Shown piece by piece: positions 1-7,613 of a DNA stretch of 7,613 bases. The stretch's first letter is position 1, and every line of letters starts with the position of its first letter. The notes beneath the pieces are model-generated. The model was given only the letters and a program-made list of their open reading frames with translations, was not told the DNA's origin and made no database searches. Made by a program: the position numbers and the translations under genes. Source of the stretch: Octopus sinensis. Lineage: Eukaryota. The stretch lies in NCBI RefSeq assembly GCF_006345805.1, contig NW_021826653.1, forward strand, positions 1-7,613. Reading direction: 5' to 3'.

Positions 1-286
1 TTAGAAAATAACAAAAAAATAAAAAAAACAAATAAAAAACTTTAAAAATTTGTAAAATAGTATAAACAAAAAAAATCTCTGCGCCACGGCAACAACCTGT
101 CTAATTTTTTTAACAGCCAATTAAGATAATGCTTAAGAGCCTTTATAGTCCGGAGATTTAGCTTAGTGACCTTGATTAGACAAACCACTGGCGGAAATGG
201 GGCAGGCAGAGTAGCAGCAGCCAAAAAAAGCGACACACAAAAAAGATTTAATTAATTACCTTAAGCTGACCGTTTTTTCTTCAGCT

Positions 287-509
287 TCGTTTTTCCTCCT
301 TCGGTTATCTATTTAAAAATTATTTTTGAATAATAAAAAATATTAGGAAAAAAGAGGCATACAGAAAATAAATTCTATCTTTACGAAAAACTTCTTTTCT
401 AAGGTCGTCTTCCCTCCTTCGGTTATCTATTGAAAAAATTATTTTTGAATAATAAAAAGTTTAGGAAAAGAGGCATACCGAAAATAAATTCTATCTTTAC
501 GAAAAACTT
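287..509. repeat. Two-copy direct duplication, period ~117 bp
   Basis: 287-393 and 405-509 share 'cctccttcggttatctatt...ttatttttgaataataaaaa...gaggcatac.gaaaataaattctatctttacgaaaaactt' with a few substitutions and indels. Confidence 0.92.
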
Positions 510-605
510 AACTAAATAGTTAATATTTTTACGCAAATTCTTCTGATTGCGCTGTCAATTGGTGGTAAATTGTGTTAATGATTGTGCTAATGTAGTTTCA
601 ACTAT

Positions 606-624
606 AAAAAAAAAAAAAAAAAAA
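606..624 (+). repeat. Poly(A) tract (19 A)
   Basis: Seen directly; 'ctat' lies on both sides of the run. Confidence 0.95.
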
Positions 625-643
625 CTATCAAAGTGTTTTTCAA

Positions 644-707
644 AATCTGTTAATTGCACACTCTATTCAAGGTCGTGCAATCTGTAATTGCACATTCTAT
701 CAAAGTC
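644..707. repeat. Short imperfect direct repeat (~30 bp x2)
   Basis: aatctgttaattgcacactctattcaaggtc (644-674) vs aatctgtaattgcacattctatcaaagtc (679-707). Confidence 0.8.
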
Positions 708-777
708 AAATATGATAATAGCTTTAATTTTGATTCATGGTCGATAATGATATATGCATTTAATTTTAAAGAGAAAA

Positions 778-940
778 TCATAGGATGAATTGAATTTCTT
801 TATCGCGAATAATTGGGAGTTCATCATTGTTAATATTCTCGCTGTCGTTTTCATCAAGGATATTCTTAATACGTGAGATTTTTGCCTCGAAGGTTTTAAT
901 GGACCTCATCATGAATGTCGAGGACATTAACGTTGTTCAT
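778..940 (-). pseudogene. Possible frameshifted coding remnant of unknown protein, starting in the divergent outermost copy of the 94-bp array
   Basis: Removing one base near 900, which is an insertion relative to the other array units, gives MNNVNVLDIHDEVLKTFEAKISRIKNILDENDSENINNDELPIIRDKEIQFIL*. The ATG has an AAAATG context and 40 open codons follow the shift. No family recognised. Confidence 0.3.
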
Positions 941-1603
941 TTTAACCAAAATGCAGAAATTTTTTTTTAATTTTTTGGGGGGGAAGGTTTTAAGGACCTC
1001 ATCATGTAAGTCGAGGACATCGTAGTTGTTCATTTTAACTAAAATGCAGAAAATTTTTTTTTAATTTTTTGGGGGGGAAGGTTTTAAGGACCTCATCATG
1101 TAAGTCGAGGACGTCGTACTTGTTCATTTTAACCAAAATGCAGAAAATTTTTTTTTAATTTTTTTTGGGGGGAAGGTTTTAAGGACCTCATCATGTAAGT
1201 CGAGGACATCGTAGTTGTTCATTTTAACCAAAATGCAGAACATTTTTTTTTAATTTTTTTTGGGGGGAAGGTTTTAAGGACCTCATCATGTAAGTCGAGG
1301 ACATCGTAGTTGTTCATTTTAACCAAAATGCAGAAATTTTTTTTTAATTTTTTGGGGGGGAAGGTTTTAAGGACCTCATCTTGTAAGTCGAGGACATCGT
1401 ACTTGTTCATTTTAACCAAAATGCAGAAAATTTTTTTTTAATTTTTTTTGGGGGGAAGGTTTTAAGGACCTCATCATGTAAGTCGAGGACATCGTACTTG
1501 TTCATTTTAACCAAAATGCAGAAAATTTTTTTTTAATTTTTTTTGGGGGGAAGGTTTTAAGGACCTCATCATGTAAGTCGAGGACATCGTAGTTGTTCAT
1601 TTT
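889..1603. repeat. Tandem array of 93-95-bp units, 7 full copies plus a partial
   Basis: Unit 'gaaggttttaaggacctcatcatgtaagtcgaggacatcgtagttgttcattttaaccaaaatgcagaaa(a)T-run aa T-run G-run' starts at 889 (divergent), 983, 1077, 1172, 1267, 1360, 1455 and 1550. Length variation is mostly in homopolymers. Confidence 0.98.
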
Positions 1604-1666
1604 GCCAATTTGAAGTTGGTGTGCACACACAGACAGACACACACCATACCATTTTATTATTAAGAT
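1604..1666 (+). mobile_element. Possible terminus of a non-autonomous Helentron/HINE-like element (short hairpin, AC/AGAC microsatellite, AT-rich end)
   Basis: 'gccaatttgaagttggt' + 'gcacacacagacagacacacacc' + 'attttattattaagat' directly follows the tandem array. This resembles the core-repeat then microsatellite layout of HINE/DINE-1-type elements. No matching left end was found. Confidence 0.35.
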
Positions 1667-2132
1667 TGTATACAAATATAACTCTACACAACATGAAACT
1701 ACGAAATGGGCGCCCTTCAAAATTTTTATGGAGGATAAAAGAGATTCGGAGAGAACAGAAGATCAAATAAATGCATTGTTAATGTTCGACGGAACAAATG
1801 CAGAACTCAATGATGAGTCAAATTCGAATTATTTTGAAAATGACGATAAAAGAACTGAGAAACAAGTGCATGAAAACCTTGTTAAAGCTGGAGAGAAAAT
1901 GAAAAAACGTCGTAAGTGTAAATATGACGCAGAAGACATTGAAATTGGAGATACAGTACTGCTGAAACACGACAGGGATGATAACCCTGGTAACCGTAGA
2001 TACCCATTATATGACGAACTGGATATAAATAAGTACACAGTTTCAGAAAAATTTGAAACTACGTGTACTATTAATAAAGATAATGGAGAAACAGTATCAA
2101 ACGTGCATTTAAGTAGATTAAAAAAAATTTGA
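1656..2132 (+). mobile_element. 5'-truncated DDE integrase/transposase C-terminus (Ty3/gypsy- or Ginger-type)
   Basis: The frame of ORF 1728-2132 stays open upstream and reads IIKIVYKYNSTQHETTKWAPFKIF, matching the YNxxxHxxTxxxPF motif that ends retroviral-type integrase cores. It continues to EIGDTVLLK and NVHLSRLKK, typical of their C-terminal SH3-like region. The catalytic DDE part is absent. Confidence 0.8.
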
Positions 2133-2230
2133 TTAAAATTGTGATTTTTTTAAATGAATTAATTCTTATTTTTTATTGACTCCCATTAAAATAAATAAAA
2201 TTTCATTTATTTTTAAAATGTAAAGCACAA

Positions 2231-2314
2231 ATGTTTAAAACCGACACTGGCGTACCTCAGGGCGACTCGTTATCTCCGGTTCTATTCATAATCTACCTGG
2301 AGGCAGCCCTAAGA
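2231..2314 (+). mobile_element. Non-LTR retrotransposon (LINE-type) reverse-transcriptase fragment
   Basis: Translates MFKTDTGVPQGDSLSPVLFIIYLEAALR, the GVPQGxxLSPxLF motif. The downstream YADD motif is missing because the sequence switches to antisense ITPR. Not in the ORF track. Confidence 0.9.
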
Positions 2315-2664
2315 CCGCAATTTATAGTGAGGAACCACTACAAACCATGATTCGTCTTTTCCTTGACGACTCAAATAAACTGAAAGTGCATTCTTTTCTA
2401 CTGGTGCTTGAACACGCTGACTGCAAGATAGAAACTTGTTACTTTTAATGTGCAAAAACTTAATTTAATTTGCTTAAATTTTACTTGAATAATGGTTCCG
2501 TACTGTACTACTGTTCCTTGCAATTTTTCGTTTATGATTTCGTTGTGGTTAAATTCTGTTTGCACGGCGTCCTTAAAATCAACTAATAAAAGTCTAACGT
2601 GTAGTTTTTTAAGCAAAACTTCATTATTTTCTTCCAAGCCTTGAATTTGACACAAAAAATTCTT
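2312..2664 (-). pseudogene. ITPR: Inositol 1,4,5-trisphosphate receptor fragment (part of the N-terminal suppressor domain), 3 exon pieces
   Basis: Splicing GT-AG introns 2598-2572 (27 nt) and 2484-2459 (26 nt) gives KNFLCQIQGLEENNEVLLKKLH|DAVQTEFNHNEIINEKLQGTVVQYGTIIQ|FLHIKSNKFLSCSQRVQAPVEKNALSVYLSRQGKDESWFVVVPHYKLRS*. This is colinear with ITPR1 as I recall it ([85 protein letters not shown]). Truncated at both ends. Confidence 0.92.
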
Positions 2665-2667
2665 TAC

Positions 2668-3343
2668 GTCAAGCCATGAAATATCAGAAAGCAAAGGCAG
2701 GGCCTTTTGTTTGGCCTCAGAATTAAAACATTCTGAATTTTCAACGACACAATCAATCCACGAAATGTCGCAAGAATCAGGAGTTTGTATAAACTTTAAC
2801 GAATTTAAAAGCGAATCCTTCATTCTCACCTAATTTCTATTAAACTTCTAATAAAACCTGTAACATTGAAGAATCGCTTATGACGTCAATATTTTCAAAT
2901 ATTTTTGGAGAAAATGTCTTGCCAGAAACCAGCGAATTGGCAGAACAGTGACGAGTGAGAGAATTGGCACTCTCAGTACTAGAATGCACGAGAATCTAAG
3001 AAGACTAGCAATTCCATATTTACTAGATTTTTTGGCCTAATCTGCTGAAGGATCCTCCGAATAGAATCGCCATCAGACCTACCCTCAAAGTCGATAAAGA
3101 GTGATTTTGCCCGTACATCAACATGTCGGATTTCACTGGTATATTCCTCCACTGTGTTAAGCTCATAATAATTCTCAAACTCCTCAGATTTTATATTATC
3201 TAAAATAAATATTGCCAACAAAAACATTCTTCGTTAATTTTATCCTAATTTTAATAAAATATTTAAAACAACCTTTTTGTGAGGAATTTTCTTTTCATGA
3301 AACAAAGCACGACTAGAAAAAACAGTGAAAATGGGTAAAATAC
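2668..3343 (-). pseudogene. CPSF2: Cleavage and polyadenylation specificity factor subunit 2 (CPSF100) internal fragment, multi-exon
   Basis: Introns 3023-2996 and 2857-2830 (28 nt each) give [30 protein letters not shown]...FSPKIFENIDVISDSSMLQ|VRMKDSLLNSLKF...ISWIDCVV. This matches recalled CPSF2 motifs [29 protein letters not shown] and VRLKDSLVSSLQF...LAWIDGVL. Less certain upstream introns: 3225-3200 (26 nt), 3272-3245 (28 nt), 3343-3313 (31 nt). The N-terminal and extreme C-terminal parts are absent. Confidence 0.92.
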
Positions 3344-6300
3344 GAGGTCTCTAGATGTGTACATATGCGGGTTCTTGAGATTATGCAATAAATTACGTAA
3401 TATATTATGCAATTTTGGGAGGTCGCTAGATGTGAGCATATGTGGGTGCTTGAGATTATTTAATAAATTCCGTTATATATTATTCATTTTGGGAAGTCCC
3501 TAGATGTGAGCATATGGGGGTACTTGAGATTATGCAATAAATTACGTAATATATTATTTATTTTGGGAGCTCCCTAGATGTGAGCATATCTGGGTACTTG
3601 AGATTATGTAATAAATTACGTAATATATTATTTATTTTGGGAGGTCCCTAAATTTGAGCATATGGGGGTACGTGAGATTATGCAATAAATTACGTAATAT
3701 TTTATGCAATTTTGGGAGGTCCCTAGATGTGTACATATGAGGGTACTTGAGATTATGCAATAAATTACGTAATATTTTATGCAATTTTGGGAGCTCCCTA
3801 GATGTGAGCATATGCAGGTATTTGAGATTATGCAATAAATTGCGTAATATTTAATGCAATTTTGGGAGGTCCCTAGATGTGAGCATATGTGGGTACTTGA
3901 GATTATGTAATAAATTGCGTATTATATTATTCATTTTGGGAAGTCCCTAGATGTGAGCATATTGGGGTACTTGAGATTATGCAATAAATTACGTAATATA
4001 TTATTTATTTTGGGAGCTCCCTAGATGTGAGCATATGGGGTACTTGAGATTATGTAATAAATTGCGTAATATATTATTTATTTTGGGAGGTCCCTAGATG
4101 TGAGCATATGGGGGTACTTGAGATTATGCAATAAATTACGTAATATTTTATGCAATTTTGGGAGGTCCCTAGATGTGTACATATGGGGGTACTTGAGATT
4201 ATGCAATAAATTACGTAATATTTTATGCAATTTTGGAAGCTCCCTAGATGTGAGCATATGCAGGTACTTGAGATTATGCAATAAATTGCGTAATATATTA
4301 TGCAATTTTGGGAGGTCCCTAGATGTGAGCATATGTGGGTACTTGAGATTATGTAATAAATTCCGTAATATATTATTCATTTTGGGAAGTCCCTAGATGT
4401 GAGCATATGGGGTACTTGAGATTATGCAATAAATTACGTAATATATTATGCAATTTTGGGAGGTCCCTAGATGTGAGCATATGGGGGTACTTGAGATTAT
4501 GCAATAAATTACTTAATATTTCATGCAATTTTGGAAGCTCCCTAGATGTGAACATATGCAGGTACTTGAGATTATGCAATAAATTACGTAATATATTATG
4601 CAATTTTGGGAGGTCCCAAGATGTGAGCATATGTAGGTACTTGAGATTATGAAATAAATTACGTAATATTTTATGCAATTTTGGGAGCTCCCTAGATGTG
4701 AGCATATGTGGGTACTTGAGATTATGTAATAAATTGCGTAATATATTATTTATTTTGGGAGGTCCCTAAATTTAAGCATATTGGGGTACGTGAGATTATG
4801 CAATAAATTACGTAATATATTATTTATTTTGGGAGGTCCCTAGATGTGAGCATATGTGGGTACTTGAGATTATGTAATAAATTACGTAATATATTATGCA
4901 ATTTTGTGAGGTCCCTAGATGTGTACATATGCAGGTACTTGAGATTATGCAATAAATTACTTAATATTTCATGCAATTTTGGAAGCTCCCTAGATGTGTA
5001 CATATGCCGGTACTTGAGATTATGCAATAAATTACGTAATATATTATGCAATTTTGGGAGGTCCCAAGATGTGAGCATATGTAGGTACTTGAGATTATGT
5101 AATAAATTGCGTATTATATTATTAATTTTGGGAAGTCCCTAGATGTGAGCATATGGGGGTATTTGAGATTATGTAATAAATTGCGTAATATATTATGCAA
5201 TTTTGGGATGTCCCTAAATGTGAGCATATGGGGGTAGTTGAGATTATGCAATAAATTACGTAATATATTATGCAATTTTGGGAGGTCCCAAGATGTGTAC
5301 ATATGCGGGTACTTTAGATTATGTAATAAATTCCGTAATATTTAATGCAATTTTTGGAGTTCCCTAGATGTGAGCATATGTGGGTACTTGAGATTATGTA
5401 ATAAATTGCGCTATATATTATTTATTTTTGGAAGTCCCTCGATGTGAGCATATGGGGGTATTTGAGATTATGTAATAAATTCAGTAATATTTAATGCAAT
5501 TTTGGGAGTTCCCTAGATGTGAGCATATATGGGTACTTGAGATTATGTAATAAATTGCGCTATATATTATTTATTTTTGGAAGTCCCTCGATGTGAGCAT
5601 ATGGGTGTATTTGAGATTATGTAATAAATTCCGTAATATTTAATGCAATTTTGGGAGTTCACTAGATGTGAGCATATATGGGTACTTGACATTATGTAAT
5701 AAATTGCGCTATTTATTATTTATTTTTGGAAGTCCCTCGATGTGAGCATATGGGTATATTTGAGATTATGTAATAAATTCCGTAATATATTATGCAATTT
5801 TGGGAGGTCGCTAGATGTGAGCATATGTGGGTGCTTGAGATTATTTAATAAATTCCGTTATATATTATTCATTTTGGGAAGTCCCTAGATGTGAGCATAT
5901 GGGGGTACTTGAGATTATGCAATAAATTGCGTAATATATTATTTATTTTGGGAGGTCCCTAAATTTGAGCATATTGGGGTACGTTGAGATTATGCAATAA
6001 ATTACGTAATATTATTTATTTTGGGAGGTCCCTAGATGTGAGCATATGTGGGTACTTGAGATTATGTAATAAATTACGTAATATATTATTATTTTGGGAG
6101 GTCCCTAGATGTGAGCATATGTGGGTACTTGAGATTATGTAATAAATTACGTAATATATTAGCAATTTTGGGAGGTCCCTAGATGTGGACATATGCAGGG
6201 TACTTGAGATTATGCAATAAATTACTTAATATTCATGCATTTTGGAAGCTCCCTAGATGTGTACATATGCAGGTACTTGAGATTATGCAATAAATTACGT

Positions 6301-7613
6301 AATATATTATGCAATTTTGGGAGGTCCCAAGATGTGAGCATATGTAGGTACTTGAGATTATGTAATAAATTGCGTATTATATTATTAATTTTGGGAAGTC
6401 CCTAGATGTGAGCATATGGGGTACTTGAGATTATGTAATAAATTGCGTAATATATTATGCAATTTTGGGATGTCCCTAAATGTGAGCATATGGGGGTAGT
6501 TGAGATTATGCAATAAATTACGTAATATTTAATGCAATTTTGGGAGGTCCCTAGATGTGAGCATATGGGGGTACTTGAGATTATGTAATAAATTCCGTAA
6601 TATTTAATGCAATTTTGGGAGTTCCCTAGATGTGAGCATATGTGGGTACTTGAGATTATAATAAATTGCGCTATATATTATTTATTTTTGGAAGTCCCTC
6701 GATGTGAGCATATGGGGGTATTTGAGATTATGCAATAAATTACGTAATATTTAATGCAATTTTGGGAGGTCCCTAGATGTGAGCATATATGGGTACTTGA
6801 GATTATGTAATAAATTGCGCTATATATTATTTTTTTGGAAGTCCCTAGATGTGAGCATATGTGGTACTTGAGATTATGTAATAAATTCCGTAATATATTA
6901 TGCAATTTTGGGAGGCCCGAGATGTGAGCATATGTGGGTACTTGAGATTATTTCATAAATTCCGTAATATTTATTCATTTTGGGAAGTCCCTAGATGTGA
7001 GCATATGGGGTTGCTTGAGATTATGTAATAAATTCCGTTATATATTATTCATTTGGGAGTCCCTAGATGTGAGCATATGGGGTATTTGAGATTATGCAAT
7101 AAATTGCGTAATATATTATGCAATTTTGTGAGCTCCCTAGTGTTTGAGAAAATGGGGTTACTTGAGATTATAAAATAATTGCCTAATATTTTATGCAATT
7201 TTTCGGAGTTCCCTAGATGTGAGCATATGTGGGTACTTGAGATTATGCAATAAATTACGTAATATTTTATGCAATTTTGGGAGCTCCCTAGATGTGAGCA
7301 TATGCAGGTATTTGAGATTATGCAATAAATTGCGTAATATATTATCCAATTTTGGAAGCTCCCTAGGTGTGAGAAAATGGGGTTACTTGAGATTATAAAA
7401 TGAATTGCCTAATATTTTATGCAATTTTTCGGAGTTCCCTAGATGTGTATGGGGGTATTTGAGATTATATAATAAATTACGTAATATATTATGCAATTTT
7501 GGGAGGTCCCTAGATGTGAGCATGTGCGGGTATTTGAGATTATATAATAAATTACGTAATATATTATGCAATTTTGGGAGGTCCCTAGATGTGTACATAT
7601 GGGGGTACTTGAG
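3344..7613. repeat. Satellite DNA, 74/75-bp monomer, ~57 copies, runs off the window end
   Basis: Approximate consensus GGGAGGTCCCTAGATGTGAGCATATGGGGGTACTTGAGATTATGCAATAAATTACGTAATATATTATGCAATTTT (75 bp). 'ctagatgtg' recurs at 3351, 3426, 3500 and 3574. The 74-bp variants carry tattattta or tattattca in place of tattatgcaa. Copy number is estimated as length divided by period. Confidence 0.99.

Follow-up and report, generated by a model that had tools for sequence, protein, structure and literature searches.

A likely deletion-eroded duplicate of neighbouring CPSF2 and ITPR genes beside satellite DNA in a probable dicyemid contig of the Octopus sinensis assembly

The window, the whole stretch of DNA that was analysed, is the complete 7,613-bp contig NW_021826653.1 (C3124) of the 2.72-Gb assembly GCF_006345805.1; it starts inside a Helitron and stops inside a 75-bp satellite. 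Its left half consists of three nested transposons, an integrase element into which a Helitron and a truncated LINE have been inserted, and positions 1-2316 are collinear at 94-99% with contig C7755 from 29383 to 26558, where the matching nest occupies 26558-29383. The integrase (rve-type) element is represented by a 3' remnant on the + strand (1666..2233), its 5' part lying beyond the Helitron in C7755. It is a multicopy element (658 candidates, 40 scored), and while a Pfam search with the remnant gave no hit, an rve core (E = 2.5e-10) is found just upstream in one of the sister copies, L010.

The Helitron in the window is the 5' part of a non-autonomous element on the - strand (1..1665), with its 5' TC at 1665 and the rest beyond the left edge of the contig. 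Its extent in C7755 is 27216-29972, where it begins with TC after an A and ends with CTAG before a T, so that an A and a T flank it and no target duplication is seen; these are the hallmarks laid out in the relevant part of PMC4778049 (5' TC, 3' CTAG, AT target, no duplication). The CTAG is preceded by a GC-rich, hairpin-like stretch, the last 45 nt folding into an imperfect stem at -7.9 kcal/mol, a value that carries no shuffle control. Of 26 sister integrase copies examined, 14 extend to the insertion site, and in 13 of these it is empty; the same Helitron ends are found at other sites too. The RepHel-type coding sequence noted in the C7755 element is a C-terminal fragment of a PIF1 helicase (Pif1_2B_dom, E = 2e-18). 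A 95-bp tandem array lies within the window Helitron (889..1603); it has 7.6 copies here and 2.6 in the C7755 version, its copy number thus differing between Helitron copies, and the window Helitron lacks a ~1-kb insertion present in C7755. Our literature search found no published report of Helitrons in dicyemids.

The LINE is represented by its first 83 bp (2234..2316, + strand), cut short where the gene pieces begin, and it continues for ~950 bp in C7755. It carries a reverse transcriptase motif (Pfam RVT_1, E = 5e-5), and a 13-bp target-site duplication precedes it (left copy at 2221..2233, + strand), the right copy lying behind the LINE tail in C7755. The site is empty in 19 of 26 sister copies and filled in none of the 26, and together the reverse transcriptase remnant, simple-repeat tail, target-site duplication and empty sister sites identify a 5'-truncated LINE insertion. 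A young 3-kb non-LTR family with a reverse transcriptase and many copies at 98-99% lies nearby (C7755:22213-25267) and presumably encodes a restriction-like endonuclease. In run X4, which derives from another organism, the 95-bp Helitron array and the LINE are present, and the integrase remnant and the 75-bp satellite have no cover at 90% likeness.

To the right of this nest lie 2 gene pieces on the - strand. The first (2313..2652) comes from the N-terminal part of ITPR, the IP3 receptor, with an Ins145_P3_rec domain (Pfam, E = 3e-12) and introns at 2572-2598 and 2459-2484; it corresponds to C7755:38237-38576 with 4 substitutions. The second (2653..3343) comes from CPSF2 (CPSF100), with an RMMBL domain (Pfam, E = 6e-4), five introns preserved whole (26-31 nt) and a sixth of which half remains; it corresponds to C7755:36548-37238 with 2 substitutions, a 99.7% DNA match to the full CPSF2 gene. 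Together the pieces retain 7 whole introns of 26-31 nt and one half, which bears out the preliminary description in its view that copying took place at the DNA level. With introns kept and an intact parent present, the pieces have the character of unprocessed pseudogenes.

From position 3344 to 7613 the window consists of the 75-bp satellite (57.5 copies), so that both of the flanking tandem arrays noticed at the outset, 95 bp at 889-1603 and 75 bp at 3344-7613, are indeed there. The family occurs on many contigs, including C7755:12997-21731, and the summed depth of the repeat in the short reads of run X1 reaches the millions. The window satellite and the C7755 array are not collinear (best ~88%); the former shares a 2-kb block with C3523 at ~98.5%, but neither the first 300 bp past the gene pieces nor the remainder. 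A common mobile end for the satellite was rejected, the outer array edges that were compared having no sequence in common. The idea that satellite edges are regular sites of broken host genes was likewise dropped: 10 outer flanks (111 ORFs; an 11th, L084, was left aside as tandem repeat) gave 5 with transposons, 1 with a host gene and 4 with nothing, and the sole host gene was a class II tRNA synthetase. That gene lies on C9705 (60050-82000) in a ~12.7-kb tandem duplication bounded by 75-bp arrays. Elsewhere, seven insertions of an element 1.3-1.4 kb long, bearing long terminal inverted repeats (C10523:12434-27916 and C3523:8886-10000), interrupt one 75-bp array at AT-rich sites and in both orientations.

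The preliminary description regarded the region between the arrays as a patchwork of four unrelated gene fragments. The LINE, ITPR and CPSF2 pieces and the integrase remnant are all present, but they do not stem from four unrelated loci. In C7755 CPSF2 and ITPR are same-strand neighbouring genes whose matched parts are 998 bp apart, and run X4 has the same order, with 1016 letters between the aligned parts at ~94% identity. The donor CPSF2 (C7755:34825-37483) models as a complete gene of 703-725 aa and the donor ITPR spans residues 5-2634 of a 2685-aa homologue, so the intact donors that the preliminary description hoped to find in the assembly do exist. The 2 gene pieces thus represent one donor segment, its full-length neighbours lying 10-12 kb from the matching transposon nest. 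Every part of the window other than its satellite maps to C7755:26558-38576 in one orientation, and the proposed capture from several loci gives way to a single 12-kb region.

Among the 5 candidates, all of which were scored, the gene pieces occur only on C3124 and C7755, where each also has a second match (ITPR 4036-4375, CPSF2 2347-3037). This second CPSF2-ITPR copy (C7755:1-12997) carries a 2.7-kb LINE insertion at 8004-10768 and is cut off by the 75-bp satellite. It lies 34.2 kb from the intact copy, with 2 mismatches over 8012 bp and 7 in the next 2,257 bp; the first 8 kb of C7755 may be an assembly echo, given 99.84% identity to the intact copy and 1:1 depths in run X1.

This arrangement leaves only three true rearrangement joints: LINE|ITPR (J1), ITPR|CPSF2 (J2) and CPSF2|satellite (J3). 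The boundaries at 1665/1666 and 2233/2234, earlier taken for patchwork joints at 1666 and ~2230, are ordinary transposon insertions that recur in C7755; J1 and J3 are found on no other contig. J1, first put at 2312, falls within a 4-bp microhomology common to both donors (2313..2316), up to which its flanks match their respective donors error-free; the chance of at least 4 bp of microhomology is ~0.024 per joint. Within one codon past J1 the ITPR frame reaches a stop. J2 lies at 2652..2653 and not at 2665 as first described, and is a blunt 998-bp deletion that brings half of the last CPSF2 intron up against an ITPR exon. Read-through of this half intron would keep the CPSF2 and ITPR frames joined, as would happen 1 time in 3 by chance. 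J3 (3343..3344) is also blunt, and it falls exactly where a modelled CPSF2 intron has its first base, at the 5' splice site; this is probably chance, because such a coincidence has a likelihood of ~1.2% per position and there are four gene-side ends. Comparison of the three joints gave no motif in common. Microhomology-mediated repair, as suggested earlier, is plausible for the 1 joint of 3 that has 4 bp of microhomology, but the other 2 have none.

The source of this DNA is likely a tiny parasite that was co-sequenced and co-assembled with the octopus, and probably a dicyemid. Pointing that way are introns of 25-49 nt and the presence of both genes a second time, on chromosomal sequence of the assembly. 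The CPSF2 model on C7755 has 15-16 introns of 25-55 nt, most of them 25-32 nt and hence mostly near or under 30 nt as in Dicyemida, and the 27-nt ITPR intron coincides with a 9-residue gap against the solved ITPR1. Animal introns this short are reported, in the portions of PMC13644364, PMC6543705 and PMC6736024 that bear on the subject, only for dicyemids and myxobolids, the tiny introns of the latter being covered in PMC13644364. Another ITPR-family exon lies on C2 (position 186 Mb), and a CPSF2-type domain lies on C10 (40 Mb) in an uninterrupted 786-residue frame, in contrast to the tiny-intron genes of C7755; this match (C10:40629598-40630134), a frame without breaks, marks a host copy that is apparently intronless. 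The ITPR of C7755 shows 43-55% identity to the best 120 of 3169 hits, which come from many animal groups with no close relative among those 120. The DNA is deep in run X1 and next to absent from run X6 of the same sample. The dicyemid-type lineage raised in the preliminary description is therefore a likely one, an assignment made by intron size, host and exclusion. In the source annotation, gene model P0001 (C7755:1155-8967) merges exons of CPSF2 and ITPR into an 'ITPR1-like' octopus protein of 589 aa and treats several tiny introns as coding sequence; it is likely misannotated parasite DNA. Parasite contigs filed under the host, with P0001 carrying an octopus-protein label, call for caution in use of the assembly.

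Short-read contigs of run X1 bear directly on the joints, although X1 may be the source sample of the assembly, so that it is not sample-independent, and its contig depths are coarse. A 91-nt contig spans J2 (window 2615-2705) with 0 mismatches at depth 73, and the undeleted form, which holds the letters missing between 2652 and 2653, is present at depth 81. The CPSF2 part common to both forms (2676-3343) has depth 147 and stops exactly at 3343, and a 9,070-nt contig that contains the ITPR piece and continues past it has depth 70, passing unbroken through the J1 position into native ITPR. Both limits of the X1 bubble lie exactly 30 bases away from the two substitutions that flank J2, which implies that the undeleted form lacks both. 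J2 thus has direct support. No contig crosses J1 or J3 among the matches listed (10,447 records lie beyond these), so of the junction-spanning support looked for, only that for J2 was obtained; the depth bins, whose sums were reproduced in a recheck, show no sign of a J1 contig. J1 and J3 have indirect support: the contig at depth 147 ending at 3343 and the ITPR body at half that depth mean that the deleted copy has to part from the gene pair at J3 and close to J1.

Set against either C7755 copy, the gene pieces show the same 6 substitutions in 1,031 sites, with 0 indels and 0 stops. At these six sites run X4 has the donor letter at 3 and a third letter at 1, with 2 not displayed. All 6 are amino-acid changing (P = 0.17 if neutral, 3e-4 at a dN/dS of 0.1), which, small as the number is, indicates a copy free of purifying selection. 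The left part of the window has diverged comparably, with 5 substitutions in 713 bp against C7755, 3 of them private to the window, 1 to C7755 and 1 unpolarised. The pieces had been described as free of stops and frameshifts, which holds against the donors and is yet unsurprising, because with only 6 substitutions the probability of no stop is 0.75. To judge from this divergence, the whole block has the look of a heritable copy with about half a percent of drift, and not that of a fresh amplification chimera or a somatic product, since such a product would match its donor. The segment is likely a dead, deletion-eroded duplicate, which would do nothing because the 5' end of CPSF2 is missing and the ITPR frame stops right after J1.

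The favoured explanation, which we consider somewhat probable, is that the segment arose as a tandem duplicate of the region that was then shortened by end-joining deletions. The order along C7755 (CPSF2, ITPR cut at 12997, 75-bp satellite, non-LTR element, LINE, integrase, Helitron, CPSF2, ITPR) could be read as a ~34-kb repeat of the order from CPSF2 to Helitron, and the window would then correspond to this repeat order, in one orientation, minus three deletions. One would have removed at least 14.8 kb between satellite and CPSF2 with 0 bp of microhomology, another the 998 bp between CPSF2 and ITPR, again with 0 bp, and the third 22.2 kb between ITPR and LINE with 4 bp, after which the copy would have drifted without selection. 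In favour of such a duplication, the second, truncated CPSF2-ITPR copy 34.2 kb away in C7755 ends at the same satellite family, and C9705 holds another satellite-bounded tandem duplication. The window cannot derive from the truncated copy as assembled, because that copy lacks the six substitutions, and the assembly does not contain the additional tandem unit that the third deletion calls for. Also counting against this reading are the lack of J1 and J3 contigs among the X1 matches listed, the two satellite arrays not being collinear, and the chance that part of C7755 is an assembly echo. The same end product could also be reached by template switching in one step.

In that case, whether by iterative MMBIR/FoSTeS or by polymerase-theta joining, a fork that broke within the LINE would have used templates 10-12 kb away, taking 340 bp from ITPR and 691 bp from CPSF2 before rejoining in the satellite; at least 4.8 kb would thereby have been replaced. 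Local donors in one orientation, the microhomology at J1, three joints within 1.03 kb and freedom from an unseen tandem unit all agree with this, and the relevant sections of PMC6902434 attribute non-recurrent complex rearrangements with several join-points to NHEJ/MMEJ and FoSTeS/MMBIR and describe multi-join-point junctions that mix microhomology and blunt joins. J2 and J3 have no microhomology, however, blunt or 1-bp joins making up ~12% of the 159 join-points in that part of PMC6902434, and the order of the pieces is that of an existing tandem repeat, which plain deletions explain; we regard template switching, the main rival, as rather unlikely. A partial assembly or library chimera, in which the deletion copy is real and its joins to LINE and/or satellite come from a chimeric read or from the assembler working in repeats, appears improbable. 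The window is a whole contig of 7.6 kb with a Helitron at its start and satellite at its end, and, as above, J1 and J3 lack spanning contigs among the matches listed and counterparts on any other contig. Both sides of J1 are nonetheless error-free to their donors up to the microhomology, the two-copy X1 contig stops at 3343 with the ITPR body half as deep, as expected if the deleted copy departs there, and the left and right parts are similar in private divergence.

The near 1:1 ratio of deleted to intact form in X1 (73 to 81, with 70 for the ITPR body) fits either a fixed duplicate or a broken allele, in the latter case one haplotype without working CPSF2 and ITPR and a parasite hemizygous for both. 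We hold this second allele to be quite improbable, as a fixed one-copy duplicate yields the same ratio, and the intact locus would have to have suffered a further loss; if true, it would matter for the question of hemizygosity in a parasite that is largely clonal. It is also doubtful that the equal dose of cassette and intact genes reflects a parasite in which essential genes persist as one functional and one wrecked haplotype, or else a young fusion in which the in-frame CPSF2-ITPR join is transcribed under the drive of the satellite. Either would mean that breakage bounded by satellites is a principal driver of how dicyemids lose and shuffle genes; no RNA run figured among those listed as containing this DNA. 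Developmentally programmed DNA elimination, amplification or circle formation, to which the preliminary description had linked the patch, is very unlikely. Such processes are reported for dicyemids (PMC6543705, in the part that draws on Noto 2003 and Awata 2006), a dicyemid source is likely here, and J3 lies exactly on a 5' splice site. A somatic product should equal its germ-line donor, however, and here there are six private changes, two of which travel with the deletion, the undeleted X1 form lacking them; the depth is about that of the intact locus, the three joints have no common motif, and the long circles in that part of PMC6543705 have a median of 702 bp and contain mitochondrial domains only. 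Least credible of all is capture of gene fragments by a Helitron or Pack-type element. A Helitron does adjoin the segment, and CPSF2 and ITPR run in its direction, but the element, whose 5' TC stands at 1665, is directed away from the patch, which starts 648 bp outside that end and so does not lie between the element ends. The capture shown experimentally, as far as treated in the relevant part of PMC4778049, proceeds by 3' read-through, and the 3' end of this Helitron is intact in C7755. One donor segment in one copy, with no dispersed copies, also argues against capture of either type, and among the 25 longest of 457 inverted-repeat pairs none forms a terminal repeat that brackets the patch.

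The meaning of the tandem duplicate with later deletions would be modest. A parasite genome with streamlined genes would still duplicate and erode regions of essential genes beside satellites and nested transposons, and the segment lends no support to a new capture mechanism or to programmed rearrangement.

Unprocessed pseudogene fragments occur in satellite-flanked segmental duplications of the pericentromeric type. The segment resembles these in its intron-keeping scraps beside satellite and nested transposons and in a copy without selection; unlike them, it has a single local donor 10-12 kb away and no mosaic of distant loci, and its scale is 1 kb since both genes and introns are miniature. 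With the rearrangements described in the sections of PMC6902434 that concern us it shares segments from one region and blunt and short-microhomology joints within 1 kb, beside repeats; here, in contrast, the copy is old, diverged and at high frequency, it belongs to an invertebrate parasite, and a single haplotype hides the order of events. The element at 1-1665 fits the Helitron end and target criteria in the cited part of PMC4778049. Helitrons with internal tandem repeats are known as well, and this one holds a 95-bp array; it did not capture the host fragments, which sit outside its 5' end. In its introns of 25-49 nt, its many repeats and LINEs and its association with an octopus, the DNA agrees with dicyemid genomes as portrayed in the relevant parts of PMC6736024, PMC6543705 and PMC13644364.
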